IMG/VR virus record: IMGVR_UViG_3300012862_000048
Span: 1 to 28,879 of that record
Source: a virus
Lineage: Duplodnaviria > Caudoviricetes
Length of the DNA stretch: 28,879 nt
Strand: one strand, 5' to 3'
Shown: in pieces, positions 2,720 to 18,033 of the stretch
Layout of the letters: each line of letters begins with the position of its first letter
How positions within the stretch are numbered: position 1 is the stretch's first letter
Notes under the pieces: model-generated
What the model saw: the letters and a program-made list of their open reading frames with translations, nothing else
Database searches by the model: none
Told to the model about the DNA's origin: nothing
Position numbers and translations under genes: made by a program

Positions 2720-2787
2720 CATTGACGTCCATCGGAGTCCAAGGACGTCTTACGAAGCCTAGTGGTGCTGGATTTGGAGTAGTTTTT

Positions 2788-2896
2788 GCGTCCAGCGGTG
2801 TCCAGTGGCATCCACTTGCATCCACGAAAAAAGTGAGTCAGGCTGTGTGTCAGCGGGCTAGACGCCCCTAGACGACTCACAGGCGCTCGACTCACA
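2788..2896. promoter_or_regulatory. att-arm recombination sites: phased candidate RDF sites and integrase arm-type repeats
   Basis: TCCA at 2791, 2801, 2811 and 2821 (exact 10-bp period); GTGAGTC (2833) and GTGTGTC (2845) facing inverted GACTCAC (2874, 2889). Confidence 0.65.
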
Positions 2897-4110
2897 TGCT
2901 GACCGACACCAAGTTGCGCTCGCTCAAGCCGAAGGCCAGTCCCTTCCGTGTGGCTGATGCCAACGGCTTGTGCATCGAAGTGCGTCCATCGGGAGCCAAG
3001 GTCTGGCGTTACCGCTATCGCTACCTGGGCAAGGCCAGCATCGTCACGCTTGATGAGTACCCCTCAATGTCGCTGCAGGCTGCTCGCGTCGAGCGCGACC
3101 GTCTGCGCTCATTGCTGCGCGGCGGGGCAAATCCTGCTCAGGTGGCTCGGGTGGAGAAGGCCGCACACGGCGAGCGGTCCGCCAACACCTTCAGTGCCAT
3201 CGGCCTTGAGCTGCTGGCAAAGCGCACCAAGGAGGGGCTGTCTCCCGGGTCGGTCGTGCGGGAGCGCAGGCTGATCGAGAAGGATCTGGCCGGGCTGGCG
3301 GATCTGCCTATCGGGGACATTACTGCTCCGGTTCTGCTAGCTGCACTCAGGAAGCTGGAACAGAGGGGCGTAGTCGAGACTGCCCATCGCGCCCGGGCCC
3401 ATGCCGGCCGAATCTTCCGCTATGCCATCGCCACCGGTCGTGCTGATAGGAATCCGGCCCAGGATCTAACAGGGGCGCTCGAGCAGCCGCAGACGAAGCA
3501 CTTTGCGAGCGTGACCGACCCCGCCGTCATCGGCGATCTCTTGCGCGCGCTGTGGGGCTATCAGGGAGCACTGGTCACTCAGGCGGCCCTGAAGCTGGCC
3601 CCTATGCTGTTCGTTCGTCCGGGCGAGCTGCGCCAAGCGAAGTGGGCCGATATCAATCTGGATGCAGCGGAGTGGCGCTACGTCACCAGCAAGACCAAAA
3701 CCCCGCACATCGTCCCGTTGTCCGACCAGGCCGTCGAAGTCCTGCAGGAGCTTTACCCGTATACGAAGCGGAGCGAGTTCGTCTTCCCTGGCGTGCGCAG
3801 TGCGCTCAAGCCGATGAGCGAGAACACGATGAACGCAGCGCTCCGAAATCTTGGCTTCGACTCAGACACGATGGTCGGCCACGGCTTCCGCGCAATGGCT
3901 AGAACGGTGCTGGACGAGGTTCTTGGCTACCGCCCGGACTACATCGAGCATCAGTTGGCGCATGCCGTGAAGGATCCGCTCGGGCGGGCCTATAACCGGG
4001 CAACCCACCTGCCGGAACGCCGGAAGATGATGCAGGCCTGGTCTGACTATCTCGACCAGCTGCGCGTTGCAGAACCGAACGTGCTGGCCTTCAAGGCCAA
4101 GCGCGCCTAA
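2896..4110 (+). CDS. int: P4-family tyrosine integrase
   Basis: Arm-binding N-terminus (MLTDTKLRSLKP...GLCIEVRPSGAKVWRYRY); catalytic R (RPGE), K, HGFR, LAH and Y (AYNR); adjacent to the tRNA. Confidence 0.96.
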   Translation: MLTDTKLRSLKPKASPFRVADANGLCIEVRPSGAKVWRYRYRYLGKASIVTLDEYPSMSLQAARVERDRLRSLLRGGANPAQVARVEKAAHGERSANTFSAIGLELLAKRTKEGLSPGSVVRERRLIEKDLAGLADLPIGDITAPVLLAALRKLEQRGVVETAHRARAHAGRIFRYAIATGRADRNPAQDLTGALEQPQTKHFASVTDPAVIGDLLRALWGYQGALVTQAALKLAPMLFVRPGELRQAKWADINLDAAEWRYVTSKTKTPHIVPLSDQAVEVLQELYPYTKRSEFVFPGVRSALKPMSENTMNAALRNLGFDSDTMVGHGFRAMARTVLDEVLGYRPDYIEHQLAHAVKDPLGRAYNRATHLPERRKMMQAWSDYLDQLRVAEPNVLAFKAKRA

Positions 4111-4157
4111 CCACCACATAGGCCTCTAAGGAGGGCCATAGCAAGAAGCAGGGCCGC

Positions 4158-4249
4158 ATAAACAAAGCGGCCGAGGAAGGGGCTGGAACCCCTAGCTCGG
4201 CCTACCACAACCGACTATTGGAGAGTCGATCATGGATTGCAACATTGTA
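4158..4249 (-). ncRNA. Putative SymR-like cis-antisense RNA (including its -10 box) over the leader and RBS of ORF 4232
   Basis: Minus-strand TACAAT at 4249-4244 within the first codons; hairpin 4169-4202 followed on the minus strand by CGCTTTGTTTAT; RBS hairpin CGACT-ATTGGAG-AGTCG. Layout resembles symE/symR as I recall it. Confidence 0.45.
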
Positions 4250-4474
4250 CCTGTTGCGCCTGAACGGGCGCGCTCGGCCGAAATCCGGCCGTCAGTCACT
4301 ACGCGGGCTATTCGCCCCACCACGTTCGTCCGAGTCCACCGCTGGCTCGCCCTCAACGACGACGCAAATACCTACAAGCTCTGCACGGCGCTGTTTGTCG
4401 TCGCTCTGGCATCGGCCGCTACTTCTCCTGCGTCAATCACTGCGTGCCTGGGGGTGATCCATGTCTGCTTCTGA
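4232..4474 (+). CDS. Hypothetical small protein with hydrophobic C-terminal half
   Basis: GGAG RBS; first of a chain of overlapping ORFs. Confidence 0.55.
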   Translation: MDCNIVPVAPERARSAEIRPSVTTRAIRPTTFVRVHRWLALNDDANTYKLCTALFVVALASAATSPASITACLGVIHVCF

Positions 4475-4718
4475 AGTCACCATTGAAGCTGCGTATGGCG
4501 CGATTCCGGTGCAGGACAACGCGCCCACCTACAAGATCTGCGCCGGCATCGACACGCTGCATGCACTCGGTGACGCCAGCGTCTACGTCAGCTTCGTGCG
4601 GTCCTTCTTCAGGACTTGCATGGAGAACCAGCTGACGCCCACGTTCGATGACCTTGCTGTTCTCGACCACCTTCTGGAGCAGGCCCAAGCTCTCCGCCGT
4701 GCATCGAGGGTGGACTAA
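4461..4718 (+). CDS. Hypothetical protein (85 aa)
   Basis: GGGGGTG RBS; TAATG coupling to the next ORF. Confidence 0.65.
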   Translation: MSASEVTIEAAYGAIPVQDNAPTYKICAGIDTLHALGDASVYVSFVRSFFRTCMENQLTPTFDDLAVLDHLLEQAQALRRASRVD

Positions 4719-5419
4719 TGAGCGCTTCGGACAAGCAGGTGGGATGCGCCCTCGATATGCCCACTGGCCGCGGCCAGGTGCGGGATCCTCTTGAGGCGCT
4801 AATAGCTGGTGGAATTCCGATTAGGACACTGCTCGGCCATCACCTTTGCAGCATCGACTGGCTTGCTGCCCGACTCGATCAGAAGTTCCGGCTCTGCTAC
4901 TACGGTGAGGATGGTGAAGTAGTGACTGAGGCGGTATCTGCGGTCTCGTTGCTCACGAGAGGCAAGGAGCTGGGCTGGCGCCCACTGGAAGATGAGCCGA
5001 CCGAACTGGGCTGGCCGGAGCTCTTCGAGGACACCACGCATCATGAGCGTGGCGGCGTCCATTGGTACTCGACCGCAGTCTCGGACACGGACGGAATGCT
5101 TCCTTTGGGTCTGCCGAAGTCAGTCATTGAGGCCGACCGCAGGGCATCGGAAGCGAGGGCGAAGAAAGCGCAGGCGCGCCTAAAGCGGGAGAAGCAGGCG
5201 GAGGCCAGGAAAGCTGCTGCTGAAGCGAAGGCCGTTGCTCAGCGCAACATCGAACGCGTCACCAAGTCCCAGCAGCGAGAGGCAGCTAAAGCAGGAAAGC
5301 CAATCTCCGTTGCTACGGCGAGGCGAAGGGCGCGGGCTTGGATTCGCCAGTGGGAGAAGGACGTCGCCACTGTCATGAAGCGTTTCACGGATAGCCAGGA
5401 GGGCAACCATGGTCAGTAA
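4718..5419 (+). CDS. Hypothetical protein with basic coiled-coil C-terminus
   Basis: 233-aa translationally coupled ORF; Ala/Lys/Arg-rich helical tail. Confidence 0.7.
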   Translation: MSASDKQVGCALDMPTGRGQVRDPLEALIAGGIPIRTLLGHHLCSIDWLAARLDQKFRLCYYGEDGEVVTEAVSAVSLLTRGKELGWRPLEDEPTELGWPELFEDTTHHERGGVHWYSTAVSDTDGMLPLGLPKSVIEADRRASEARAKKAQARLKREKQAEARKAAAEAKAVAQRNIERVTKSQQREAAKAGKPISVATARRRARAWIRQWEKDVATVMKRFTDSQEGNHGQ

Positions 5420-5933
5420 CAAAGGCCGTTTCAAGCGACCAATCCGGTTCAATCGGACACGTGCGAACCCAATCCAGCGCTTGCCTTTCTACCGCCAGAG
5501 CCACGCCAAGACGGGGGACTACTGGCGGATGCCGGAGGTCCAGGGTTACCTCATGGGCCGTGAGGTTGGAAGGGTCTGCGCGATAGCCTTTGTACAGGCT
5601 CTGGAGGAAGCTTCAAGCCGGATTGGCATGGCGGCAAGTGTGCAGCTGGCCGACACCGTGGCATCAGCAATTGAGGCTCACGGTGGATCTTTGACCGACG
5701 GTCAACGTGGGATCATTGAGGGGTTCTTTGGTCGCGGATCCAAGCTGATGGACGTCATTCGGTCGGGTATCGTGTCGCTAGAGAAGTCGCCAAAGTTCGA
5801 AATGCAGCAGATCGAAGCTGCGCTCAGGGACTTGTCCAGCATGACTGTGGAGGAATATGCCATCCGCAGGCTTGGCTCGATCAATGGTGCGATTCCTGAT
5901 TCAAAATCGCGGCCACCGTTCTCCCTAGAATGA
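5409..5933 (+). CDS. Hypothetical protein (174 aa)
   Basis: AGGAGG RBS; overlaps the upstream stop. Confidence 0.7.
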   Translation: MVSNKGRFKRPIRFNRTRANPIQRLPFYRQSHAKTGDYWRMPEVQGYLMGREVGRVCAIAFVQALEEASSRIGMAASVQLADTVASAIEAHGGSLTDGQRGIIEGFFGRGSKLMDVIRSGIVSLEKSPKFEMQQIEAALRDLSSMTVEEYAIRRLGSINGAIPDSKSRPPFSLE

Positions 5934-5985
5934 GATCGCTGTGGCTCCAGGGCATTGACCCTGCAACCGGGTATTGGAGGCCCGA

Positions 5986-6741
5986 ATGAAAAAGCAAACG
6001 CAAGGCGCACAGCGCTGGGTGTTGGGCTTACGCGCAGCGGAGTGGTACAGCTTCGAGCTCATGGTGGACAGGTACTTGCCACCGCCAGCGCCCATCGGAG
6101 CCGGCACTTGGGATCACCTCCCCCCGTTCAACTGGGCTGGGTCTCTCCGTGTCCTGAATCGGCTATTCGCATTGGGAAGGGAGGATGCTGTGGCGAGTGC
6201 TTTGTCCACAAACTTCCCTCAGGGTCTCGCTTTAGAGGACCTGTGCAGAATCTTTGAGGCGGCAGACTTGGCGATTCGTCGTTTTGATCTAGTCGCCATC
6301 ACGCAGTCCGAGAGGAGGCGCAAGGCAAAGATCATTGCAGACGCAGCTAGGTTGATTGCTGCGGAGCTGAGCCATCCTGCGACTCAGAATGATTTTTGGC
6401 GAGCACGCCGAAGGCTGAAGCTGATTGACGGTCGAGGGCGGGGGATGCTCGGCGCGTTGCCCGACGCGTTCGAAAGCTTCGCTCAGATTGCAGAAGAGAC
6501 AGCCGAGCTGCCTAAGGATGTTGGCAACCCCAATGCTTCCAGCGCGCACAAGCTCTTCTTCCTAAGAGAGGTGACCGAACATTTGTACCGCAGGCATGGG
6601 AGGCCAATGAGGTCGCTCGTTCTTGTTCTAGCGGGTCTGTACTTCGACGTGTCAGACATGACGACCAATGACTTGGCTAAGTATGCGCAGGTGAAGAAAG
6701 AGAGAGGGAAAAGGCAGGTTTCATCCCCTCTCTATCTTTGA
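5986..6741 (+). CDS. Hypothetical protein, possible regulator upstream of alpA
   Basis: GGAGG at 5976-5980 favours the ATG at 5986; helical; function inferred from position only. Confidence 0.65.
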   Translation: MKKQTQGAQRWVLGLRAAEWYSFELMVDRYLPPPAPIGAGTWDHLPPFNWAGSLRVLNRLFALGREDAVASALSTNFPQGLALEDLCRIFEAADLAIRRFDLVAITQSERRRKAKIIADAARLIAAELSHPATQNDFWRARRRLKLIDGRGRGMLGALPDAFESFAQIAEETAELPKDVGNPNASSAHKLFFLREVTEHLYRRHGRPMRSLVLVLAGLYFDVSDMTTNDLAKYAQVKKERGKRQVSSPLYL

Positions 6742-6833
6742 AGTAATAGCCTGCTTTTTCTCAATTACCTAGAGAATTGCGGTGTCCCAATCTGTCCGAA
6801 ACCGGCCATTTCGGTCCGGTGCAGGGCAGAGAC

Positions 6834-7052
6834 ATGCAAGCAAGTGCAACGGGTGATCTTCCGGCAACTGGGTTCATGCGGCTCCCCGACGTACTTCGGG
6901 TCTATCCGGTTTCACGGTCTACCTGGTGGTCTGGGGTCCGTTCGGGTCGCTACCCTCAGCCGTTCAAGATTGGAAGCAGGGCGACGGCATGGCGTGCTGA
7001 GGATATTCGCGCGCTGATCCTTGGCGCCCCCTCGTCGGAGGGGCGTCAATGA
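6834..7052 (+). CDS. alpA: AlpA-family excisionase/regulator
   Basis: FMRLPDVLRVYPVSRSTWWSGVRSGRYPQPFKIGSRATAWRAEDI, a classic AlpA pattern. Confidence 0.88.
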   Translation: MQASATGDLPATGFMRLPDVLRVYPVSRSTWWSGVRSGRYPQPFKIGSRATAWRAEDIRALILGAPSSEGRQ

Positions 7053-7303
7053 CTGGATTCAACTTCTCCGACCTGAGCGCCGATCAACGCCGTCTGCTGG
7101 ACTTTGGAGGCTGGACCGCCGATCACCCTCACGCCGAGGCCAAGCCGGCCCGCAAGGACGCTGTAGGCCTGATTGAGCGCGGGCTCCTGCTGGCCGTCAG
7201 CGTCCGCAGGCGCGACAAATACGGTTCCTACTCCCTGACCGAGTACCGGGTGCCTGATACCGCTCGCCGGGCATGGGCACTGCACAAGGAGGTCACCCCA
7301 TGA
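7049..7303 (+). CDS. Hypothetical protein (84 aa, possible winged helix)
   Basis: ATGA overlaps at both ends; GGAGG RBS. Confidence 0.7.
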   Translation: MTGFNFSDLSADQRRLLDFGGWTADHPHAEAKPARKDAVGLIERGLLLAVSVRRRDKYGSYSLTEYRVPDTARRAWALHKEVTP

Positions 7304-7530
7304 CTTCCGATGCTATCCGAGCCGGCCGAGTGGCTGCCAGGGGGCGGACCTTGATGCGCCTACCCGAGGTAGTCGCGGCCTGCGGTATATCCCGCTCCCT
7401 CATCTACAAGATGGCGAAGGAAGGCCAGTTCCCCGGGCCCATCCGCGTAGCTGCCCGTCTGTCCGCCTGGGACTCGGAGGCTGTGCAGAGCTGGATCGAC
7501 TCCCGCTGCGAAGAAGGGAGGGCGACCTAA
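7300..7530 (+). CDS. alpA: Second AlpA-family excisionase/regulator
   Basis: LMRLPEVVAACGISRSLIYKMAKEGQFPGPIRVAARLSAWDSEAVQSWI; AGGAGG RBS before the ATG at 7300. Confidence 0.9.
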   Translation: MTSDAIRAGRVAARGRTLMRLPEVVAACGISRSLIYKMAKEGQFPGPIRVAARLSAWDSEAVQSWIDSRCEEGRAT

Positions 7531-8225
7531 TGGCTACTGGAATCGTCCACGTAGAGTTCCACGGGGCCGAACTGATCGGCCGACTCCATCAGGGACAGCC
7601 CTTTGTGGCGATGCGACCCATTGTGGAGGCCATGGGCTTGGACTGGTCCAAGCAGCTGGACAAGCTGAAGTCCCACCCGGTGCTGGCCCGCCAACTGTCT
7701 ACCTTAAGGGGGATGGTTGCTGGCGATGGCAAGGGCCGCCAGATGCAGGCGCTGCCCTTGTCCAGGCTTCCGTTTTGGCTGGCCACGGTCAATCCCAACA
7801 AGGTGAAGGCAGCGATCCGGGAACGAGTGATTCTGTTTCAGGAGCAGGCGGCCGACGCCCTTGCAGCTGCGTTTTTGTCGAATGGGGAAAGGCGTGATGC
7901 GGCAATGGCAAAGCGCGTCGCAGGAACCGTCATGTGCCGGATCTTGCACGACACGCTGGTGGGCCTCGGGAAGGACCCGAAGGGCTATGACTACGCGACA
8001 GAGCATCGTCTGGTGAACCACTGCATCACCGGCATGTTCCAGGGCGTGTCCGAGGACTCCCTCTCGACTGACCAACTGAAGCTGCAGCAGGAGCTGCGGA
8101 TGCAGAACGCCGTATGGATCGGGCAGGGCATGGCCTACCGGGATCGCAAGCCTCTCCTCGAACAGCACGCGGCAACCTGGTGCCGCACTCAGCACATTGG
8201 CTTGGAGGCTTCCAATGGCCACTAG
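7530..8225 (+). CDS. Phage antirepressor (P22 Ant N-terminal domain) protein
   Basis: VEFHGAEL...PFVAMRPIVEAMGLDWSKQLDKLK...LPLSRLPFWLATVNPNKVK matches P22_AR_N. Confidence 0.85.
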   Translation: MATGIVHVEFHGAELIGRLHQGQPFVAMRPIVEAMGLDWSKQLDKLKSHPVLARQLSTLRGMVAGDGKGRQMQALPLSRLPFWLATVNPNKVKAAIRERVILFQEQAADALAAAFLSNGERRDAAMAKRVAGTVMCRILHDTLVGLGKDPKGYDYATEHRLVNHCITGMFQGVSEDSLSTDQLKLQQELRMQNAVWIGQGMAYRDRKPLLEQHAATWCRTQHIGLEASNGH

Positions 8226-8748
8226 AGCGACTCAAAGGTTGCTGCACGGGCCGAGCGGACTCTTGGTTTCACCCGCGACAGGAGAGCTCTGGAGCGCCTG
8301 CGGTCGTGTGATGGGCCGCAAGAGCCGAGATGGATACATCCGGGTCATTGTCCGCCTGGCGGGTGGCTCCTGCGCGACTTGGTACGCCCATCGGCTTGTC
8401 TGGGAGGTCGTGAACGGGCCCGTGCCAAGGTCTATGGAGGTCGATCACCTCGATGGCAATCCGTCGAACAACCGGCTGGACAACCTCCAACTGCTGACTG
8501 GTGCGGACAATCGGCGCCTTCAGCGTGTTCGGAGCATGGCCAAGTACGGCAGCCCCTCGCCCCACTGCAAGCTCAGCGTTGCGGAGGTGGAAGCAGTTCT
8601 CCGCACTGTTGGAACGGTTCCGAGCAATGTCTGGGCGCGTCGATACGGTGTCACCCCGCCGGCCATAAGAAGCATCCGTAAGCGGAAGACCTGGCGACAC
8701 GTCGAAGCAGATACGAACACCAAGGCCAATCGCTCCAAGCGCGGCTGA
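8215..8748 (+). CDS. HNH endonuclease (HNH_3 type) with C-terminal HTH
   Basis: AHRLVW...EVDHLDGNPSNNRLDNL...N motif; C-terminal WARRYGVTPPAIRSIRKRKTW. Confidence 0.88.
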   Translation: MATRATQRLLHGPSGLLVSPATGELWSACGRVMGRKSRDGYIRVIVRLAGGSCATWYAHRLVWEVVNGPVPRSMEVDHLDGNPSNNRLDNLQLLTGADNRRLQRVRSMAKYGSPSPHCKLSVAEVEAVLRTVGTVPSNVWARRYGVTPPAIRSIRKRKTWRHVEADTNTKANRSKRG

Positions 8749-8776: not shown

Positions 8777-9253
8777 ATGCACAGTACAGGCCACGACCGC
8801 GTTCAGCGGTCTGTAGAGGGCGCTGCCGGCTACGCGCCGGCACAGCCCAAGAAGAACATCGACAGGCGGCGACAGAAGCTCCAAGGGCGCTCTAAGGGGC
8901 CGCCCTTCCTCATGATCGAGCACAGAATCTCTGACTCGCCCGAGTTCGGCAGGCTGTCCGGCAATGCGGTGAAGCTGCTGCTGGAGCTGGCTCGGCAATA
9001 CCGCCCAGGAAAGAACGGTGATCTGAGCATCCCTTGGTCGATGCTGTCCACGCGTGGATGGAAGAGCAAGGCGACGGTCCACAGCTCGAAGCTGGAGCTA
9101 CTGGCCGCAGGCTGGATCATCGAGACGCGAAAGGGCGGCAAGAACATGTGCAGCCTGTACGCCCTGACGTACTACGCGGTTGATGAATCAGAGAAGCACC
9201 TAGAGCCGGCGACCGTCACTCCACCGAACCTCTGGAGGGCACGCAATGGCTAG
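8777..9253 (+). CDS. Winged-helix protein, putative replication initiator
   Basis: LSGNAVKLLLELARQY...NGDLS...SKATVHSSKLELLAAGWI wHTH pattern; directly followed by iterons and a DnaA box. Confidence 0.65.
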   Translation: MHSTGHDRVQRSVEGAAGYAPAQPKKNIDRRRQKLQGRSKGPPFLMIEHRISDSPEFGRLSGNAVKLLLELARQYRPGKNGDLSIPWSMLSTRGWKSKATVHSSKLELLAAGWIIETRKGGKNMCSLYALTYYAVDESEKHLEPATVTPPNLWRARNG

Positions 9254-9404
9254 TCGCTATGTGGGCCAATGTGGTCGCTATGCAGGCCAATTCCCCAACG
9301 AGTTGGCCCGCATACAGACCTACGAGGTCGCAATGCAGGCCAGTCAGGCGGTTATCCACAGTGCCCCGAGGTCGCTATGTGTACACCCTTCTAGATATAT
9401 ACCA
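9253..9404. other. Putative iteron-type replication origin
   Basis: 16-bp repeats GTCGCTATGYRGGCCA at 9253, 9274, 9327 and 9371 (degenerate), one inverted copy at 9304-9319, perfect DnaA box TTATCCACA at 9352-9360, short AT-rich patch at 9389-9404. Confidence 0.75.
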
Positions 9405-9555
9405 AGCGGAGCGCGCTTCTACTGCTTCAAAGCACTGTCTTTAGGGCTTAGAGCCTGGGCGGCCGTTTCGCGGGCAATTCGGTGCATTGAACTGACCGGT
9501 TCGCGTGAGGGACTGGTTCGCCAGGCGGACGGCCAGCGGCATAGGGAGGGCGCCT

Positions 9556-10302
9556 ATGGCAGCCCGAGACCATGAGCGCTACGTGGAGCTGGTGCTGCTG
9601 TCGGACGACTCTGTCGACTTGGTAGTGAGGGCCATCGCTGGCGCATTTGGTTTCGGGGTGCCCACACGGCCCGCAGTCCGGCACGCGTCAAGGCGGAGAT
9701 CCAGCGAGGAGTCCTGTCCGGATGAAGGCGCGTACCTGCCCATCCATCGGGTGCACTCGATTGAGCAGGCCGCATCCAAGTACCTACCGGCGCAGGCGGC
9801 GGCTCGTAAACAAGCGCTAGAGACATTCAGCCCGAAGGATCGCCAAGCGGTGCTGGACTTTGACCATATGGCGGTGATGCGCTCCCCGGCCGCGGCTGAT
9901 CGCACTCGCCAGCTAAGGGGCTGGAAAGCACAAGGCTCGCTGACAGCTGCGCCTGCCAAGGGGCCGAGTAGGCTGGTGCTGCACGCATTGGCGGACGCGC
10001 AGCTGGACGGTCCTCTAGGTGCCTGGCTGATGCTGTATGCGATTGGAGACCAAAGGGAGTGGTCAGTGGTCTGTCGACACATGACCGCCTGCGGGCACCC
10101 CGATTGGGCTTCACTCGAAGCAGCTAGGAGACTGCTAGCCGGATGCCACCAGCAGTCCTATCGGGAGTCGGCCAAAGGCCACGCCCGCCAAGAGGCGCGA
10201 TTTCGTCGCGAGGTGCAATCGGCTGAGAGGCGCCTGCTTGAATGGCTGGCTCGCGCCAGCCGGAGAGTTGCCGCCGCGATGGGCTCTGCCTGCGAGCAGT
10301 AG
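9556..10302 (+). CDS. Hypothetical protein, candidate late-gene regulator (Q-like position)
   Basis: GGGAGG RBS; C-terminal HTH-like segment (SYRESAK...RFRREVQSAERRLLEWL); lies just before the terminator-gated operon. Function is inferred. Confidence 0.55.
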   Translation: MAARDHERYVELVLLSDDSVDLVVRAIAGAFGFGVPTRPAVRHASRRRSSEESCPDEGAYLPIHRVHSIEQAASKYLPAQAAARKQALETFSPKDRQAVLDFDHMAVMRSPAAADRTRQLRGWKAQGSLTAAPAKGPSRLVLHALADAQLDGPLGAWLMLYAIGDQREWSVVCRHMTACGHPDWASLEAARRLLAGCHQQSYRESAKGHARQEARFRREVQSAERRLLEWLARASRRVAAAMGSACEQ

Positions 10303-10393
10303 ACCTACGTGGACGGCAGTGGACGCGGGAGTCAAAAGCACCCGGATTCCGACCTACCTAGTAGGGCCCCACGTCCCCCCAAGGGCGGGTCCG

Positions 10394-10431
10394 GGCGGCA
10401 GCCCCCAGAGAGCTGCCGCCTTCTTTTTTTT
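10394..10431 (+). terminator. Intrinsic terminator upstream of the ejection-protein operon
   Basis: GGCGGCAGC-9 nt-GCTGCCGCC followed by TTCTTTTTTTT. Confidence 0.85.
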
Positions 10432-10496
10432 GCGACTCAAAGCTCGCAACCGAATTCGGCACGCATGCAGGCTGCCACTTAGGCAACGGAGATCTG

Positions 10497-11048
10497 ATGC
10501 CACCAATCATTGTCGACAATGCGATCTCCGATGCGCCGGGCGTCCGGGCGGCGGCAATGCGCGCGCAGTACGTGGACTGGCCCGGCCATGACGGTGAGGT
10601 CTACAAGCGGGTGTCGCTGACGCCGGTTCCTGGGCTGCAGGAAGCCATCGAGGCGCAGCTTGGCCCGGTGGAGATGCTGGGCATGGGCTACCGGCTCAAC
10701 TTCGATGGTGAGCTGCCCAACGCTGCGATCCACTCTGATATGGGCTGGGGGACGCACGCCGCCGTGCTGTACTTGAGCGAAGGCGAGGGCGGCACTGCGT
10801 TCTGGCAGCACAAGGCCACTGGCGCCACGCGCATCGATCCGGGCGACGTGGCTCTGTTCGCGGCCATCGAGGGTGATTGGGACGCTGCTGATCGCTGGGA
10901 GCAGACCGGCCTGGCGGAAATGAAGATGGGCCGCATGGTGATCTACGAATCGGCCATGTTCCACAGCCGCTGGCCTTTTGCCGCTTTCGGCACTGACTAC
11001 GAATCTGGCCGCCTGGTTGCGGTGGCCTTCTTTACTCCGAGGGGCTGA
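10497..11048 (+). CDS. 2OG-Fe(II) oxygenase-like protein (DUF6445-like)
   Basis: HxD (IHSD), AAVLYL, GGTAFW, distal H (MFHSR) and R (GRLV) of the double-stranded beta-helix fold. Confidence 0.78.
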   Translation: MPPIIVDNAISDAPGVRAAAMRAQYVDWPGHDGEVYKRVSLTPVPGLQEAIEAQLGPVEMLGMGYRLNFDGELPNAAIHSDMGWGTHAAVLYLSEGEGGTAFWQHKATGATRIDPGDVALFAAIEGDWDAADRWEQTGLAEMKMGRMVIYESAMFHSRWPFAAFGTDYESGRLVAVAFFTPRG

Positions 11049-11497
11049 TGACCACGATCCGCAAAGCAACTCTGGCCGATGTGCCGGAGATCGTCCGCAT
11101 GTCCGCAGCTTTCTACCCGACAACGCACTACGCGCAGTGGTGCGAGATGGACGAGGACAGCGTGGCCGGCCTTGCCACTGGCCTGATCGAGAACGACGTG
11201 TTCTTCGTGGCCGAGAGTGACGGCGCACTGGTTGGCATGGTCGGCGTGATGCTGGTCCCGTTCCTGTTCAACCGCGACCACCTGTTCGCCACTGAGATCG
11301 TGTGGTGGGTCGCCCCGGAGTCGCGCGGTACGTCGGTGGCCGCCCGCCTGCTGGACGTGATCGAAGCCCCGTGCCGCGAGCGTGGCGCAGCTCGCATCCA
11401 GATGGTGCATATGCCCAACAGCCCGCCACAAGCCGCCGCTCTGTATGAGCGGATGGGCTATGCGCGCTCCGAAATCTCCTACACGAAGGATCTCTGA
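11048..11497 (+). CDS. GNAT acetyltransferase in the phage virion-assembly position
   Basis: IRKATLADV, WWVAPESRGTSVA (motif A), LYERMGY (motif B); TGATG coupling. Confidence 0.88.
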   Translation: MTTIRKATLADVPEIVRMSAAFYPTTHYAQWCEMDEDSVAGLATGLIENDVFFVAESDGALVGMVGVMLVPFLFNRDHLFATEIVWWVAPESRGTSVAARLLDVIEAPCRERGAARIQMVHMPNSPPQAAALYERMGYARSEISYTKDL

Positions 11498-11499: not shown

Positions 11500-12249
11500 A
11501 TGGCCGCTATCACCGCAGCAGCAGTGGTCGGCGCCGGCATGGCCTATTCGGCCAATCGCCAAGGCGCCGCACAGAAGAAGGCGGGCCGCGCCCAAGCAAG
11601 CGCAGCCCAGCAGACGCTGGACACCCAGCAGGGCATTTACGACCAGTCGCGCCAGGAGGCCATGCCGTACCTAGAGGCGGGTAACAACGCCCTGACCGGC
11701 CTGAACGCCTTGGCGGCTGGCGACTACTCAGCCTTTGAGAACTCGCCGGACTACCTGTATGCCCAGCAGTCGGGGCTTGCAGGTCTGGACCGTAGCGCGG
11801 CGGCGCGCGGCGGCCTGTACTCCGGCGGCGCTGACGCTGATCGCATCGCCCTGTCCTCGGGGCTGGCCACGCAGAATTTGGGCAACTACCGGAACTCGCT
11901 GATGGGCCTGGCCAGCATGGGTCAGAACCAGAGCCAGTACCTGGGCCAGCTCGGACAGAACTACGGCAACCAGTTCGCCAATGCCATGGGCATCAAGGGC
12001 AACGCACTGGCCCAGATCGCGTCTGCAGGGCCGATGACGCAGGCGGGGTATGGCAATGCCTTGGCAGCGGCAGCCAGCACCTATGCAGGGGCGGCCGGTG
12101 GTGGCGGTAACGGACTGTCCGGCTGGCAGCCATCGTCTGCTTGGGGTCAGTCAGTCACCGCGTCGCCAGGATCCAATCTGGGTTTTGGCAACAACATGCA
12201 GAATTTCCTGGCCTTGGGTAATGGCCGCAAATCCAGCTTCGGCGGCTGA
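11500..12249 (+). CDS. DNA ejection protein, P22 gp7-like
   Basis: Hydrophobic Ala/Gly N-terminus, Q-rich helix, PYLEAGNNAL, SAAARGGLYSG motif, G/N/Q-rich tail; first of three ejection-type genes. Confidence 0.8.
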   Translation: MAAITAAAVVGAGMAYSANRQGAAQKKAGRAQASAAQQTLDTQQGIYDQSRQEAMPYLEAGNNALTGLNALAAGDYSAFENSPDYLYAQQSGLAGLDRSAAARGGLYSGGADADRIALSSGLATQNLGNYRNSLMGLASMGQNQSQYLGQLGQNYGNQFANAMGIKGNALAQIASAGPMTQAGYGNALAAAASTYAGAAGGGGNGLSGWQPSSAWGQSVTASPGSNLGFGNNMQNFLALGNGRKSSFGG

Positions 12250-12260
12250 GGGAGCTAGCA

Positions 12261-13778
12261 ATGGCAGACTACCAACAGAATCTCCTGGCATCTCTCCAGG
12301 GCGGCTTGAACTTCGGGCAGCAGATAAAGAAGCAACGCGACACCAACCAACTGAACCAGCTTGCTTCCCTCTCCTACAGTGCGCCGATGGAGCAGCGGAA
12401 CTCGCTTTTGGGACAGATGGCGGCAATCGATCTAGAGGCTGCCCAGCAGCAGCAGAAGGCGTTCGTAAGTGACGATGATCGCCGTACCACCACGATGGTA
12501 AACATGGCCAAGCTGCTTACGACCATGCCGCCAGAGGCCCGAGAGAGCCTGTACAACAACCGGATGCTCCCCGAGCTGCAGAAGATGGGGGTGTCTGGCG
12601 CCCCTCGGTGGTCCCCTGAAACCGAGGCGGTCATTATGAAAAGCGCCAATGACCTCTACATGGCTGGCACCGGCGGGCAGATGCCGACGGATGTTCGGTC
12701 CTTCCAGATGATGACTGCAGGTCTTTCGCCGGAGGATCGCGAGAAGGCCCGCCGGATCAACCTCGGCTTGGCAGGCCGCGAGTCCTCAGCGGCAATCACC
12801 TATCAGAAGGTGAGGGGGCCTGATGGGCTGGAGCGGCTGGTCGCCGTTGACCCGCGCCAGATCGGGGCGCAGGTTGTTGGCGATGGATCAGGGTATGGCT
12901 CATTCGCCAGCCAGCAACAGCCCACGATTTTCCGTGGGGCGGGCGGCGAGGTGGTCGATGTTTCCCAGGTGACCGAGCCGGGGCTTCGCGAGGCAATTAT
13001 GCAAAACCCCACCGCGTGGGGTCTGGTTCCCGATGGCGGGTCGGTACAGATGCCCGACCGGATGGTAAATGCCCCGGGTGGCCCCACCATGAACCCGTTC
13101 GTTGGCCGAAGCCCAGAGGATCAAGCGGCTCTCACGGAGGCAGCAAAGGCCGGAGTCGAAAACGCGAACTTCCCCAACAGGCTTTCCCAAGAGCGTCAGT
13201 TGCAGGACGTCAAGACTCAGGGGGCGATCACCCAAGCGGCCGGCACAGCGGCAGCGGAGGCTCAGGCGAAGGATGCCTCGCAGCGCCCCAAGCGCATCCA
13301 GCAATACAGGCAGGCTCTTTCCTCGGCCGGGAATGTCGAGACGTCTTTGGACAAGGCTCTTGGCCTTCTGAGCCCGTACTCGACTGGCTTCGTAGGCGCG
13401 CGCTCTCGTGGAGTTGAAGGGAGCCCGTCCTACAACCTGGCTGCGGAGCTGGAAACGATCAAGGCCAACCTCGGCTTCGACAGGCTGCAGCAAATGCGCG
13501 ATTCGTCGCCCACCGGCGGCGCGCTTGGCGCTATTGCCGTGCAGGAACTGGTGGCATTGCAGTCCACGATTGCCAATCTCGATCCAAATCAGTCCGAAGA
13601 CCAGATCCGAACGAACCTTGATCGGGTAAAAACGCACTACAAGAACTGGCGTTCTGCGGTTCAGCAGTCCCTTGCTGATGAGGAGCGCGCCCAATCAGAG
13701 CGGCCAGCCGCATCGCCAGCGGCGAGAGCTCCGGCAGCTGCCTCATCCGCCTCCAGTTACAGCAACCTTTGGAACTGA
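12261..13778 (+). CDS. DNA ejection protein, P22 gp20-like
   Basis: 505 aa, Q/A-rich and helical; LASLQGG N-terminus; C-terminal SPTGGALG..ELVALQ..LDPNQS segment and SYSNLW ending resemble gp20-type proteins (from memory); synteny. Confidence 0.72.
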   Translation: MADYQQNLLASLQGGLNFGQQIKKQRDTNQLNQLASLSYSAPMEQRNSLLGQMAAIDLEAAQQQQKAFVSDDDRRTTTMVNMAKLLTTMPPEARESLYNNRMLPELQKMGVSGAPRWSPETEAVIMKSANDLYMAGTGGQMPTDVRSFQMMTAGLSPEDREKARRINLGLAGRESSAAITYQKVRGPDGLERLVAVDPRQIGAQVVGDGSGYGSFASQQQPTIFRGAGGEVVDVSQVTEPGLREAIMQNPTAWGLVPDGGSVQMPDRMVNAPGGPTMNPFVGRSPEDQAALTEAAKAGVENANFPNRLSQERQLQDVKTQGAITQAAGTAAAEAQAKDASQRPKRIQQYRQALSSAGNVETSLDKALGLLSPYSTGFVGARSRGVEGSPSYNLAAELETIKANLGFDRLQQMRDSSPTGGALGAIAVQELVALQSTIANLDPNQSEDQIRTNLDRVKTHYKNWRSAVQQSLADEERAQSERPAASPAARAPAAASSASSYSNLWN

Positions 13779-13781
13779 CTA

Positions 13782-16337
13782 ATGGCCAAGAAATGGGTTG
13801 AGGTAGCGGCTTCGCCTGCCTATCAGGCGCTAGCACCGGAGCAGCAGGAAGAGGCTCGGAACCAGTACTGGAACGAGGTGGTCGCGCCAAACGTTCCGCA
13901 GGCAGAGCATGCCTATGTTCGGCAGGCCTTCGATTCCGACACCAGTCGCACGGTGAACTGGCCAGGGCAGGCGCCGCTTGAAGCCGAGATCGTGGGAGGC
14001 ACACGCCAGAGCGCGACGCAGCAGGCTGCGCCGGCCCAGCAGCAGCCGCAGACCGCCCCGGATGGCTGGGAGTATGGCCCTCTGCGCGACACCATGTTCG
14101 GCGCACGATCCGTCCTGCAGGGCCTGGGAGGCCTTATCGGCGCAGTCGGCGGCGACGCTGGCAACTATGCGCTGGTGAATCCGATCCTGCGCGCCGTCGG
14201 GGCGCAGCAGGTTCGTCCGTACCGGGAGGAATTTGGCGCCCTGGCCGATCAGCTTGGCCTGCCCAAGGCGCAGACCTCCGGCGACCGCGTGCTGGGTGAC
14301 ATTGGCGAGGCGCTGACCGGAACCGGCCTGACGCTGGGCGCTGGTGCTGGCCTGAATGCGCTAGCGAACATGGGTAGGGGTGCCGCAATCCGCACCCCGG
14401 GCTATGTGGCTCCGGTAGAGAACAGGCTGGCGAACTTCCTGACGGCGCAGCCCGGCTTGCAGACCGTCTCTGCCGCCACGGGCTCCGGCGCATCGTCCAT
14501 CAGCCGAGAGTCTGGCGGATCGCAAGGCAACCAGCTGCTGGCTGGTCTTGCGGGTGGCCTGGGGCCGGGTCTCGTCACGGCGGGTGGCGCAGCGGGCTTA
14601 CGCGGGGTGGTGCGCGGCGGATCTGGCGAGAACATGAAGAACCGTTTGGCCGACTTCAACGCACTGGGAGCGCAACCGTCCGTAGGTCAGGCATCGGGCA
14701 ACCCTATGGTGCAGGGGTTGGAGAATCTTCTGGCTCAGGGTCCCACCAGTTCGGGGGTCATGGCTCGGGCTGCGGAGCGTCAATCGGGCGAGATATCCAG
14801 CGGCTTGGGGAAGATGGCCAACGACTTCTCGCGTAGCGCTAGCGGCGAGCGTGCAGGCCGGGCAATCAAGCGTGGGATCTACGACGAGGGCGGTTTCAGC
14901 AGCCAGTTTAAGGCGACGCAGGATCAGCTCTACGACAAGGTTGACGAGTTGATTCCCCCCGCCCAAGGCGTGGCAATGGGCAACACCCGCGCCACCTTGG
15001 ACTCCCTCAGTAATCCGATCAAGTCTCCTGGAGCACCGAATACTGCTCGACTGTTCCAGAACGGGCGCATTACCGGAATTGGGAATGCTGTTGAGGCGGA
15101 CTTGGCGATTCCCACCCCCCAGCAGTTGTCGCTTGATGAGGCGGTTGCCAAGGTCAATCAGCTCTATGCATCGCGTGACTCTGCCTCTCAGGATGCTGGG
15201 CGGTTCGCTGCCTTTGCCAACGACCAGGCCAATGCTGCGCAGCGGTACTTCCCCGTGGCTGGGCAGCCCCGATTCCCCGGCCGGTATACACCGGCCCAGG
15301 CAAACGTTGCTCCGGGCCAGCAGGCCGCAGCTGAGGCCACCGAGATCGCGCGAGACCGTGTTTCACAGGCCGCAGAGATCGAAGCGACCATTGGCGACCT
15401 GACTGCTGCTGCGGAACGCGCCGGCGGCCGACTGCCATATGAGGCCGTCAAGAAGCTTCGCTCCTTGGTGGGAGAAGAGCTACAGGATGCCGGGCTAGCG
15501 TCCGATTTCCCCAGGTCCAAGTTCAAAGCCCTATACGCGGCTCTATCGGAAGATCTGGGTGTCGCCGCTCAGGAAGCTGGCCCGGAAGCCGTTGCGGCCT
15601 ACAGTCGGGCCAACGCCTACACCCGCGCTGGTATGCGTCGCATTGAAGACATTGAAAGCGTGATTGACCGTGCCGGCGGCGCTGAAAAGGTGTTTTCGTC
15701 GCTTATGGCCACTGGCAAGGAGGGTGGCTCCACACTGCGGTCCGTTCTTCAGTCACTGCCCGTCGAGAGTCAGCGGGCCGTTACCGCCGCCGCCATCAAG
15801 CGCCTCGGGAGAGCAAGTCCAGGTGCGCAAGACGCAACCGGTGAGGTGTTCAGTGCCCGGACCTTCCTCACCAACTGGAACAACGTCAGCACCGAGGCCC
15901 GCCGCGCGCTGTTCGACCGCTACGGAAAGGGTTTCAGCGAGCAAGTGGATCGCATCGCAAAGGTGGCCGACATGATCGACAAGGGCGCCGGAGTCTTTAA
16001 GAACCCGCCTGGCACCGCCAAGAGTCTGGCTGGCCTGACGTATGGCGCGTCGCTGGTGGGAAGCATGTTCACAGGCGGAACGGCGCTGCTCCTCGGAGCG
16101 GGCGTCAGCGCAAATGCAGCTGCCCGGTGGCTCACCAATCCGCGAGCAGTGAAGTTCTTGGCCAACGCCACCACGCTTCCTAAGTCTCAGATCCCTTCGT
16201 TCATCAACTATGTCGCGCAAGAAGGGCAGAAGACGGGTGACCAGGATTTGCAGGATCTAGCCAAAGTACTTGGCAACGCGGAACAGGAAGTAGCCAACTC
16301 CTCCGACAATCGCAACGACACGGACAACCGGCGTTAG
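13782..16337 (+). CDS. Large DNA ejection protein, P22 gp16-like
   Basis: N-terminus MAKKWVEVAASPAYQALAPEQQEEARNQYWNEVVAP closely resembles the start of P22-like gp16 variants as I recall them; Gly/Ala-rich hydrophobic segments; 851 aa. Confidence 0.78.
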   Translation: MAKKWVEVAASPAYQALAPEQQEEARNQYWNEVVAPNVPQAEHAYVRQAFDSDTSRTVNWPGQAPLEAEIVGGTRQSATQQAAPAQQQPQTAPDGWEYGPLRDTMFGARSVLQGLGGLIGAVGGDAGNYALVNPILRAVGAQQVRPYREEFGALADQLGLPKAQTSGDRVLGDIGEALTGTGLTLGAGAGLNALANMGRGAAIRTPGYVAPVENRLANFLTAQPGLQTVSAATGSGASSISRESGGSQGNQLLAGLAGGLGPGLVTAGGAAGLRGVVRGGSGENMKNRLADFNALGAQPSVGQASGNPMVQGLENLLAQGPTSSGVMARAAERQSGEISSGLGKMANDFSRSASGERAGRAIKRGIYDEGGFSSQFKATQDQLYDKVDELIPPAQGVAMGNTRATLDSLSNPIKSPGAPNTARLFQNGRITGIGNAVEADLAIPTPQQLSLDEAVAKVNQLYASRDSASQDAGRFAAFANDQANAAQRYFPVAGQPRFPGRYTPAQANVAPGQQAAAEATEIARDRVSQAAEIEATIGDLTAAAERAGGRLPYEAVKKLRSLVGEELQDAGLASDFPRSKFKALYAALSEDLGVAAQEAGPEAVAAYSRANAYTRAGMRRIEDIESVIDRAGGAEKVFSSLMATGKEGGSTLRSVLQSLPVESQRAVTAAAIKRLGRASPGAQDATGEVFSARTFLTNWNNVSTEARRALFDRYGKGFSEQVDRIAKVADMIDKGAGVFKNPPGTAKSLAGLTYGASLVGSMFTGGTALLLGAGVSANAAARWLTNPRAVKFLANATTLPKSQIPSFINYVAQEGQKTGDQDLQDLAKVLGNAEQEVANSSDNRNDTDNRR

Positions 16338-16451
16338 GACGACTTTGAGGCTCTCCCAGCCTGAGAACTCTACTTCCGCCTCACGATCCTTTTGAGCCCA
16401 ATCCTTCGGCTGGCCGCCGACGTTGGACAGGTCGAACTTTTCCTTGCTCAT
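16257..16451 (-). CDS. Small membrane protein (64 aa), candidate superinfection exclusion factor
   Basis: GGAG RBS; MSKEKFDL...VVLTPVVRVVAIVGGVGYFLFRVAKYFG with one C-terminal TM segment; overlaps the 3' end of the gp16-like gene. Confidence 0.55.
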   Translation of the reverse strand: MSKEKFDLSNVGGQPKDWAQKDREAEVEFSGWESLKVVLTPVVRVVAIVGGVGYFLFRVAKYFG

Positions 16452-16482
16452 CTGATCACTCCATGGGTGCGTGATTTTCCAG

Positions 16483-16827
16483 TCATCGATGCTTCTCAGC
16501 GCATGATGACTCGTCAGTCTGCAGGCAGCAGATATAAGACCAGTCCTCCGCGCTGTCTCTTCTTCTAGCCTGCGCGGCATCCCAGGCAATTGCTCCGCAC
16601 TGTTGGAGCCCAACAGCCGTGCCAAGGAACAGCTCATTCGGCTCCGCAGGTGGCTCCTTGCCTTCGTAGTAGTAGACGTTGAAGGTCTGAGTTTCAAGCT
16701 GCTTGCAGGTGAATCGAGAGTATTCCTTGCAGGAGTCTCGCTCGCAGCCCGTGAGGGCGAATAGCAGAGCTAGGGACGCCGCCGTCAGAGCGGGAGTAGT
16801 GAGTCTCCGCAGGCATCTGGTGTCCAT
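16483..16827 (-). CDS. Cysteine-rich lipoprotein
   Basis: AGGAGG RBS; basic N-region, hydrophobic h-region, lipobox LTG-C; six further Cys in the mature part. Confidence 0.8.
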   Translation of the reverse strand: MDTRCLRRLTTPALTAASLALLFALTGCERDSCKEYSRFTCKQLETQTFNVYYYEGKEPPAEPNELFLGTAVGLQQCGAIAWDAAQARRRDSAEDWSYICCLQTDESSCAEKHR

Positions 16828-16895
16828 AGCCCCTCCTTGAGTCGACAAATCGTAACACCAGCAGGGCGCCCCCCTGCACAGAGGAATTGAACCCC

Positions 16896-17597
16896 ATGAG
16901 GAAAGAGAACCGGCCCGCCGACGGTGCCAGCCAGCGCTCGGCTAAGCTCGATGTGCCTCTCGATAAGGGGCAGACCCTGGAGGAGAAGTCGGCCGGGCTG
17001 ATTGCTGAGGGCATTGCCAGCAACGCCTTCGTCAGCCTGCTGTTTGCGCAGCACTCCGGGGTGGCCGGCGGGAACGAGCTGAACGAGCTGGTGAAGTCGA
17101 CCCGGGCGGTAGTAGGGCGTGCCGCCAAGGGCGAGACCGACCAGGCCGATGGGCTGCTGACCAGCCAAGCCATTGCCCTGAATGCGGTCTTCTTGGAGAT
17201 GAGCCGTCGAGCGGCCCTCAACATGGGGGAGCATATGGGCGCCATGGAGACCTACATGCGGCTGGCCCTGAAGGCGCAGTCCCAATGCCGGACCACCCTA
17301 GAGACCCTGGCCGAGATCAAGAACCCGAGAGCCGTGGCGTTCGTGAAGCAGGCCAACATTGCCGGCGGCCACCAGCAGGTGAACAACCACCCCCCAGGCA
17401 GCCCCGTGTCGGTCCCGGATGAGGCCGGGCGCGCGGAAAGCAAAAGACGGCCGAACGAACTATTGGAGGAGATCTCAGATGCGCAATGGCTGGACCCCAG
17501 AGCGGCGCCGGCGACAGGCGCAGGCAATCCAGAACTGGCGACCGTGGGAGCAGGCGACCGGCCCGCGCAGCGTCGAAGGAAAGGCCAAGGCGGCTAG
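16896..17597 (+). CDS. Conserved island hypothetical protein, possibly packaging-related
   Basis: GAGGA RBS; helical core with LALKAQSQCRTTLETLAEIKNP...VKQANIA.GHQQVNN, a motif I recall from satellite-like islands; function unknown. Confidence 0.7.
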   Translation: MRKENRPADGASQRSAKLDVPLDKGQTLEEKSAGLIAEGIASNAFVSLLFAQHSGVAGGNELNELVKSTRAVVGRAAKGETDQADGLLTSQAIALNAVFLEMSRRAALNMGEHMGAMETYMRLALKAQSQCRTTLETLAEIKNPRAVAFVKQANIAGGHQQVNNHPPGSPVSVPDEAGRAESKRRPNELLEEISDAQWLDPRAAPATGAGNPELATVGAGDRPAQRRRKGQGG

Positions 17598-17670
17598 GAA
17601 CGCCTGGAAGGGCGGGGAGCGAATGACGCTCCGTCAGCTGGCTGCTGTCCTTCGGGAAGTCAGGTGCTGA
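17479..17670 (+). CDS. Small basic protein with STGP-x-T-x-EGK-like motif (HGGxSTG-related)
   Basis: GGAGGA RBS; WTPERRRRQAQAIQNWRPWEQATGPRSVEGKAKAARNAWKGG; overlaps the upstream gene by 119 bp. Confidence 0.65.
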   Translation: MRNGWTPERRRRQAQAIQNWRPWEQATGPRSVEGKAKAARNAWKGGERMTLRQLAAVLREVRC

Positions 17671-17712
17671 CACAGGAGTCCTCACGCGACTCAATTTTGA
17701 GTTTTGCTTTGA

Positions 17713-17725
17713 AATCAATGGGTTA
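17713..17725 (+). promoter_or_regulatory. IHF consensus site
   Basis: AATCAATGGGTTA matches WATCAANNNNTTR, in an AT-rich context. Confidence 0.55.
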
Positions 17726-18033
17726 TTTTGACAAGGTCGGCCCATCGGCTAGGGCGCGGGAGTTTCTGGACGCCTCTACGCGCAAGCCTCTGGCGGGCGA
17801 AGCAGTTTTGTCAGGCCCTAAAGTAGGTGGGTAGACGGGCTCCTACGATACGGCCCCCATCGCGCCCATCGCCCCAGCGATTGCCTCCCATTTCGCGACA
17901 TGTACGCGCGCACGCGCGCGAGGCCGGCCGGGTCTTCGGAATTTAGTTACACCTCTACGCGCGCGCGATGCGTGCCAAACAGCTTAGGTCGGCCTAACTT
18001 CCGGTCTTTGGAGTCCCTAGAAGGAGCGGTTCC

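Follow-up and report, generated by a model that had tools for sequence, protein, structure and literature searches.

A tRNA-Met island with podophage ejection-protein genes in a Stenotrophomonas-like genome is a likely phage parasite

Introduction

Known satellites alter capsid size, packaging or tails. Here we analysed a stretch of 28,879 nucleotides (IMG/VR record IMGVR_UViG_3300012862_000048; hereafter the window), which holds most of an island integrated at a tRNA-Met gene and carrying genes for P22-like ejection proteins. Sequence comparisons showed that the host of the island is Stenotrophomonas-like. Because the island has no recognisable shell or tail genes and keeps intact ejection-protein homologues under selection, it is likely a phage parasite, a satellite resembling the phage-inducible chromosomal islands (PICIs).

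The original prediction, made from the letters of the window, named no known satellite that is defined by its own ejection proteins. In the available text of PMC11773190, EcCIMP1, a tested PICI of Escherichia coli MP1 that is mobilised by podophage Kapi1, has such a cassette. Its authors proposed a packaging role for this DUF2824/ejection cassette, and that text contains no experiment on these genes. EcCIMP1, as described there, and the window element are both integrated in a tRNA gene. In both, int, alpA, an antirepressor gene and a replication gene (putative in the window element) are followed by the ejection cassette, no capsid or terminase is recognised, and the opposite strand carries a helper-like excisionase gene at the far end. 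However, homology is detectable in int (36%) and alpA only, and tblastn between the two cassettes gave no match at E 0.05. Owing to this restricted homology, the two layouts look convergent or very old. The TOPRIM-DUF927 primase, the Ash/Icd genes and the tRNA-Thr site of EcCIMP1 are absent here, whereas the Stenotrophomonas family has a putative initiator of 158 amino acids (aa), a Q-like candidate with a leader, the oxygenase, and mostly gp20 and gp16 only.

Replacement of a helper virion component with a satellite's own version has been demonstrated experimentally for the PICI-like elements (PLEs) of Vibrio cholerae. They substitute their own tape-measure protein, the deletion of which cuts transfer by 96-99.9% (PMC12987554, in whose main text, as far as available, the word "ejection" does not occur). 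In contrast, we infer the substitution by the Stenotrophomonas element from its genes only. PLEs exchange myophage tail parts, not podophage internal proteins, and have an unrelated backbone. PLEs and the phage-inducible chromosomal minimalist islands (PICMIs) have Vibrionaceae hosts, and a Stenotrophomonas-like host lies outside the range stated in the available text of PMC11773190.

The element shares an integrase and AlpA, a unidirectional layout and the lack of lysis genes with the Gram-negative PICIs of SatelliteFinder, as given in the accessible part of PMC10085698. It differs from them in encoding virion-internal proteins and in having no recognisable primase-replicase, capsid-morphogenesis or small-terminase (TerS) gene. 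Among the five PICI core components of that source, integrase and AlpA (6777, 7273 and 27371) are present, and capsid morphogenesis and small terminase are missing from the window element; for the primase-replicase module, the 8777-9253 protein and the repeats behind it are candidates. The Stenotrophomonas family measures 19-27 kb, against a PICI median of 9.5 kb in the same source. Functionally it would resemble a PICI, but by the SatelliteFinder definition we do not class it among them. The window element also has none of the capsid, portal and large-terminase (TerL) genes that capsid-forming PICIs (cf-PICIs) carry for themselves.

The likely source of the ejection block is the P22/Xfas53-like temperate podophages of Xanthomonadales (NC_013599, a Stenotrophomonas prophage in genome G013, and phage L011). 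In these phages, genes for an oxygenase, GNAT, gp7, gp20, gp16 and a small membrane protein come after gp10, the same series as in the element; the G013 prophage has TerS, TerL, portal, scaffold, capsid, gp4 and gp10 and then the same five genes. No gene for TerL, portal, scaffold, capsid, gp4, gp10, tail or lysis is recognised in the element, the early region of which is not related to theirs. A literature search, mostly without subscription journals and without supplements, found no description of a Xanthomonadales satellite with ejection genes. EcCIMP1, with its similar cassette, and the experimentally shown tape-measure substitution of the PLEs are precedents for the idea. New here are the att-defined extent, a gene pair as invariant core, a five-gene variant and its exchange with phages, an oxygenase and GNAT linked to gp7, and the anatomy of the leader and the packaging slot.

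Results

An ejection-protein operon without head, tail or lysis genes

The five cargo genes (Table 1) are open frames whose stop and start codons overlap or are nearly adjacent, and their PHROG and Pfam families agreed with the coupled operon of oxygenase, GNAT, gp7-, gp20- and gp16-like genes that had been read from the sequence. The best phage-record match of the gp7-like protein was gp38 of Xylella phage Xfas53 (53%), annotated as similar to P22 gp7; its profile gave no real match to solved structures. The N-terminus of the gp16-like protein matched Xfas53 gp40, Sf6 gp13 and others at 59-66%. Among phage records, the gp20-like protein matched Brucella and cyanophage virion proteins in a stretch at their C-terminus, so that its name rests on PHROG and position. 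The middle of the gp20-like protein (about aa 170-290) is swappable and differs even between elements that are 97-99% identical. In G458, G014 and L011 an M15 peptidase occupies this part, in G031 and G028 an SLT domain, and no family match was obtained for it in the window element.

Virion genes were searched for in the window and its extension (extended positions 2701-33000). tblastn with the proteins of eight related phage loci gave no match to TerL, portal, capsid, gp4, gp10, tail or lysis proteins, and no head, tail or lysis gene was taken as real from the Pfam and PHROG matches in the element. The predicted lack of recognisable head, tail and lysis genes was thereby borne out, and the head or tail genes that might have lain just beyond the window were not found up to extended position 33000. 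No gp10 remnant precedes the oxygenase gene, in agreement with the claim that no degraded remnant flanks the operon. P4-type Psu, Sid, delta and alpha primase had no Pfam or PHROG match among the 44 and 43 open reading frames (ORFs) scanned.

The PHROG "scaffold" match at 4718-5419 was rejected as weak (E 0.005), and so was the "TerL" match at 21526-22140 (E 2.5e-4), a protein of 204 aa with no Walker A motif. The "TerS" match at 25839-26165 (E 5e-7) was rejected as a helix-turn-helix cross-match, no better than the excisionase match of the same gene.

The gp20/gp16 pair is the constant cargo of a recurrent family

Genomes were searched with family markers that had been selected irrespective of the cargo, and the family was found to recur. 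A profile of the 9505-10302 protein matched in 9 of 147 Stenotrophomonas genomes, all nine with gp20-like and gp16-like genes and without a head or tail match. This profile, the motif of the leader ahead of the cargo and the 16896 gene all lead to the same tRNA-Met element. The leader motif search gave 11 viral and 8 metagenome loci, and 28 leader-bearing records (26 distinct) were compared, leaving out L199, which is identical to the window. Behind the leader, a gp20 match was present in 28 of 28 records and a gp16 match in 26, the other two matching phage genes in the gp16 position. None of the 28 had a head or tail match in the sequence present, many being partial. The oxygenase, GNAT and gp7 genes occurred in five records, the window element included, and always all three together; the other 23 had none of them. 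Since the pair is constant and the three genes occur in only 5 of 28, the defining cargo of the family is the gp20/gp16 pair and not a trio, operons of five genes being in the minority. The predicted ejection trio is thus correct for this element, but not for the family. L202 is of the two-gene form, and its gp16 is 86% identical to that of the window element.

The cargo is under purifying selection and is exchanged with complete phages

Ratios of nonsynonymous to synonymous substitutions (dN/dS) were calculated by the Nei-Gojobori method against the sister elements G457/G459. They were 0.04/0.05 for the oxygenase, 0.09/0.08 for GNAT and 0.03/0.05 for gp7, and lay at 0-0.08 for the gp20 ends and 0.04-0.27 for gp16. 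This check, suggested with the original prediction, indicates purifying selection on all five genes (0-0.27), although part of the module divergence could have arisen in phages. The dN/dS of the integrase was 0.01-0.03.

Of 174 viral loci with gp7 relatives, 80 were kept; 76 of these had head genes, three were capsid-less elements and one was too short upstream. All 12 regions with a gp7-relative match, from 11 of 14 other family genomes, were prophages with head genes. Four further loci came from GTDB: two prophages, the capsid-less L091, and L092, which was undecided and was excluded from the element count because its upstream side is cut. The Pseudoxanthomonas element L091, which has no capsid genes and a different replication module, keeps the oxygenase and GNAT genes at a new place behind the 16896 pair. 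The homologues are therefore not confined to full prophages, since capsid-less elements recur under purifying selection.

The module of the G458 element is 87% identical to that of complete phage L011 over 5.77 kb, compared with 72-82% to the window; in gp7, G458 and L011 differ at seven sites (dS 0.028). In a tree of oxygenase, GNAT and gp7 (42 rows), G458 was sister to L011 (100/100), and L091 and L092 stood elsewhere. The approximately unbiased (AU) test under LG+G4 rejected a single clade for the four Stenotrophomonas element modules (p-AU 0.004), a group named only after a first tree had been seen. These comparisons indicate that the ejection module is exchanged with complete P22-like phages, and either direction is possible.

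The element is bounded by att sites at a tRNA-Met gene

The original prediction placed the right end at 18030. The attR core was located by low-stringency alignment 0.7 kb past the window instead, at extended 29590-29603; it is one base short of the tRNA 3' core and lies behind arm-like repeats. No perfect repeat of the tRNA 3' end was present in the window or the genome. In G014, G474 and G478, the homologous attR site is followed by sequence resembling the DNA behind the tRNA gene of the empty-site genomes G019, G026 and G017, and an attR-type site is also present in G550. The tRNA gene lies within 2-5 kb of hns in four near-empty genomes. Intact att pairs were found in five genomes, and the element size is 26.9 kb here and 19.3-23.4 kb in four relatives. 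No circular junction of the element was found among the matches listed. The tRNA is probably of the Ile2 type; the genome has three other Met(CAT) genes.

A leader with a terminator-like hairpin precedes the cargo

The leader hairpin was overlooked by a standard scan; a clear U tract follows it in 21 of the 28 records. A sigma-70 promoter scan gave 0 sites. Because the operon lies behind a terminator-like hairpin, we infer that it is silent in the integrated state. The protein encoded upstream at 9505-10302 is a candidate late regulator by its feature match to Q. As an identification of Q this was rejected: the hhalign probability was 0.05 (shallow alignments), hmmsearch against phage Q proteins was negative, and the structural model was poor (predicted local distance difference test, pLDDT, 49) and found no match in a fold search.

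The slot after gp16 suggests a packaging function

The 16896 gene has 2726 homologues. The overlapping pair at 16896-17670, however, had 0 matches in 50,697 phage records and no family match, and the helical-bundle fold predicted for 16896-17597 (pLDDT 71) had no match in PDB or BFVD. In relatives, the slot after gp16 holds DUF5681 (seven elements), the family of the Xfas53 gene preceding terL, or an Sf6-type TerS (L092). Because these occupy the same slot, it appears to be a packaging slot.

Discussion

We consider it fairly probable that the element is a PICI-like satellite of P22/Xfas53-like podophages that loads its own matched gp20 and gp16 into helper particles. This reading starts from the observed anatomy, att sites, recurrence, selection and module exchange with complete phages. 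Since the minimal cargo is the pair whose members must match and which exclusion targets, it is best read as a satellite that would load its own pair. The predicted loading of a DNA channel of its own into a podophage shell accordingly fits anatomy, recurrence and selection, except that the constant set of the family is a pair and not a trio. According to the available text of PMC10883804, P22 virions package foreign ejection proteins, which work, and escape from SieA maps to genes 16 and 20. Assembly of the channel is sequential and involves gp7, gp20 and gp16, the first two of which act in cis (10.64898/2026.09.03.749273, as far as available).

Helper induction would switch on alpA and the antirepressor, and the element would excise and replicate. 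The product of 9505-10302 would then read through the leader terminator, with late expression of the ejection genes, and the slot after gp16 may redirect packaging. The element's own gp20 and gp16, here also gp7, would be loaded into helper-built particles and form the channel that delivers element DNA. The oxygenase and GNAT may serve gp7, because all three occur together or not at all. The most likely benefit, which we put forward tentatively, would be entry into cells whose exclusion proteins block the helper gp16/gp20, and the variable cell-wall-hydrolase slot in gp20 could be a second lever on entry. A wider proposal, possible though open to considerable doubt, is a distinct satellite class that arose more than once (EcCIMP1 type, the Stenotrophomonas family and Pseudoxanthomonas L091) and would be defined by its hijacking of the DNA-entry step. 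Its members would direct a gp20/gp16 channel of their own into stolen podophage particles, get past the exclusion proteins by which the helper is stopped, and renew this channel through recombination with helpers.

Several points weigh against the loading of a satellite's own pair. We know of no way to sort satellite proteins into satellite particles. There is no terminase, primase or pac-like match in the window element, and comparison of its non-coding pieces with phage loci and five phage records gave no convincing DNA match for a pac-like or promoter copy common with phages. No P22-type head or tail genes were found elsewhere in the host genome, whose one phrog_21 portal match (G000:C13:190937-192391) belongs to another, non-P22-type prophage. 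The prophages neighbouring the element in G457 and G461 look lambda-like and P2-like, and P22-type head queries had no match in the neighbouring prophages of G457, G458 and G461. Many leader-bearing records are partial, with a length of about 5 kb in two; damaged copies occur in L206 (split gp16) and G458 (interrupted 16896 gene); and the Q assignment of 9505-10302 has one test in its favour and three that do not support it. In P22, Sf6 gp16 or gp20 alone gives dead particles and both together work, so that mixing would hurt helper and satellite, and only one of four foreign sets escaped SieA, partly (available text of PMC10883804). The transfer rate of EcCIMP1 was very low (PMC11773190, in the part available).

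The cargo might instead be an anti-phage poison, mismatched gp20/gp16 entering helper virions and making them non-infectious, with the host population protected and own transfer secondary. P22 particles with unmatched gp16 or gp20 do assemble and do not infect (PMC10883804, available text), and the module is highly mosaic and adjoins a defence-type cargo slot. One mismatched protein would suffice for this purpose, yet all 28 records retain the full-length pair, gp20 bearing hydrolase domains; the G458 set is so close to that of a complete phage that it would be a poor poison for that phage; and EcCIMP1 leaves the lytic growth of its helper unrestricted (PMC11773190, available text). We regard this explanation as unlikely.

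It is also rather improbable that the pair merely tops up limiting or incompatible ejection proteins, without an exclusion benefit, in a satellite that dampens helper late genes or uses several helpers. Such a supply function would agree with the re-acquisition of the module from helper-like phages, with its position behind a leader of its own, and with a five-gene form that reproduces the whole phage block following gp10. However, no other structural protein is supplemented in this way, it is the most variable genes, those targeted by exclusion, that are kept, and gp7 is missing from 23 of 28 records.

A deletion remnant or a passively captured right arm of a P22-like prophage, to which the head genes beside most gp7 relatives (76/80 viral loci; 12/12 regions from 11 family genomes) and the helper-like xis and, in some members, phage-like integrase (72-84% identical) at the far end might point, is very improbable, and we conclude that the element is no deletion remnant, given that the genes are under purifying selection, the junction is clean and shows no trace of gp10, the left arm is not related to P22-like phages, one slot accommodates modules of several types, five genomes have intact att pairs, and L091 retains oxygenase and GNAT after their relocation. 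Equally improbable is a role outside the virion, in which the proteins would act in the host cell, for instance as decoys blocking the channels of incoming phages together with the membrane protein and lipoprotein: P22 gp16 can complement in trans outside the cytoplasm (available part of 10.64898/2026.09.03.749273) and EcCIMP1 adds superinfection immunity (available text of PMC11773190), but gp7 and gp20 act only in cis from the virion (the former source), and the terminator-like hairpin suggests silence of the operon when integrated.

If the satellite does load its own pair, swapping of the internal ejection channel would be another piracy route, acting on which cells a particle enters. The family provides natural experiments: a single backbone holds two-gene or five-gene forms, the same gp16 type occurs in both, and cell-wall hydrolase domains have been exchanged. 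With these it can be tested by what means ejection proteins are selected for packaging, which function the gp14-position acetyltransferase and the oxygenase have for gp7, and how the diversity of ejection proteins is shaped by superinfection exclusion. The family is also relevant to the use of phages against Stenotrophomonas, as such islands are present in 9 of the 147 genus genomes searched.

Further features of the element and its surroundings

Table 1. Features of the window element, with positions in the window
Feature	Position	Strand	Remarks
tRNA-Met(CAT)	2644-2719	+	Integration site; attL core 2705-2719
Whole element	2705-28879, then 724 bases beyond the window to attR	+	~26.9 kb in total
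Tyrosine integrase	2896-4110	+	PF00589, PF13356, PF22022
AlpA regulator 1	6777-7052	+	PF05930
AlpA regulator 2	7273-7530	+	PF05930
P22-type antirepressor	7530-8225	+	PF10547, phrog_524
HNH endonuclease	8197-8748	+	PF13392
Conserved 158-aa protein, putative replication initiator	8777-9253	+	dN/dS 0.08-0.13
Four direct 9-mer repeats, candidate origin	9253-9379	.	4 matches against 0.59 expected, the pattern having been picked after the repeats had been seen
Family marker protein, candidate late-gene antiterminator/activator (Q-like, lead only)	9505-10302	+	ESM feature match to PF06323 Q, 0.92
Conserved non-coding leader	10320-10432	+	Fixed 27-nucleotide spacing; directly 5' of cargo
Terminator-like hairpin and T run in leader	10393-10422	+	Stems changed yet hairpin kept, 28/28 records
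DUF6445 oxygenase-like	10497-11048	+	phrog_1644; directly after gp10 in phage L011
GNAT acetyltransferase	11048-11497	+	Position of the gp14-type DUF2824 gene of EcCIMP1
gp7-like ejection protein	11500-12249	+	phrog_598, E 3e-31
gp20-like ejection protein	12261-13778	+	phrog_2534, E 7e-13; synteny in G013 prophage
gp16-like ejection protein	13782-16337	+	phrog_26400, E 6e-11
64-aa single-pass membrane protein, exclusion candidate by position	16257-16451	-	Hydrophobic stretch aa 31-63
114-aa putative lipoprotein	16483-16827	-	Seen in elements only
Overlapping pair, 233 aa and 73-83 aa, packaging candidate	16896-17670	+	Slot holding small-terminase-like gene in relatives
Conserved 83-aa ORF ending conserved block	18034-18285	+	dN/dS 0.06-0.11; relatives diverge at 18283
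Variable low-GC cargo	18511-23936	.	DUF6932 (PADLOC PDC-M63A), DUF4238, Mrr-like nuclease, thymidylate kinase-like
Excisionase-like gene at far end, opposite strand	25839-26165	-	50-63% identical to Xis of P22-like phages
Third alpA (PF05930) and YagK/YfjJ-family gene	27371-28879	+	Within att sites; same position in G014, G460, G487 and G550

In the left arm, Pfam matches confirmed the int, two alpA, antirepressor and HNH genes named beforehand. The rep gene and origin named with them were not confirmed and stay candidates, since the 8777-9253 protein had no Pfam, PHROG or NCBIfam match. This protein has a 34% match in L221 that lies behind helicase/primase genes. The ORF at 9246-9575 over the repeats has a relaxed, near-neutral dN/dS (0.57-1.82), which together with the 9-mers would fit an origin but does not prove one. 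The left arm has only HNH in common with four P22-like phages and is otherwise unrelated to them.

The 64-aa membrane protein goes with this gp16 type: of 14 phage loci with a gp16 that matches aa 90-330, 10 carry its gene, and four related elements have it as well. The positions of this protein and the lipoprotein make them candidates for exclusion. A 39-kb contig with a depth of 44 (run X1, record 7) matches pieces of gp20 and the small membrane gene with similar spacing; it is possibly a helper-type phage, and the run may be the source sample of the element. In L234 (10366-11031), L235 (6597-7256) and five further elements, gp16 is followed by a glycine-rich protein of 219-235 aa, which has a short C-terminal motif in common with the gp7-like protein and no family match. 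The viral contigs L221/L222 (6621-9416) and L227 (12240-13763), of 17-24 kb, carry a tape-measure protein adjoining a distant 16896 relative, possibly the same strategy with siphophage delivery proteins.

Within the variable cargo, the DUF6932 nucleotidyltransferase-like gene and its 313-aa partner (18511-20036) match the candidate defence model PDC-M63A, and this slot varies among relatives. The 204-aa protein at 21526-22140 is kept in most family members and is also found near a prophage end in G458 and elsewhere in the host genome. At the far end, some members have an integrase 72-84% identical to that of a phage. A 160-base stretch before the third alpA (27052-27213) is 97% conserved in G014, G459 and G460 amid diverged flanks, and is perhaps a small RNA or a leader with a short hydrophobic ORF.

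Outside the element, five ORFs were scanned past the window: HipA-like, DUF3037, H-NS and glycosyl hydrolase matches, and a fifth without match. HipA-family kinases lie on both flanks, HipA_C before the tRNA (386-1786) and HipA_2 with DUF3037 after attR (L001 17231-18801). Rfam matched only the tRNA and sRNA-Xcc1 (RF02221), neither within the element; the latter lies directly before the tRNA at 2138-2227. The tRNA-Met site is a hot spot, and unrelated lambda-like or P2-like prophages are inserted upstream of the element (first 1.3 kb of L010 and L014; G457, G458 and G461). An attL-like tail and a degenerate copy of the 18034 gene, situated just after attR (extended 29604-29709, L001), are what is left of an earlier element belonging to this family.

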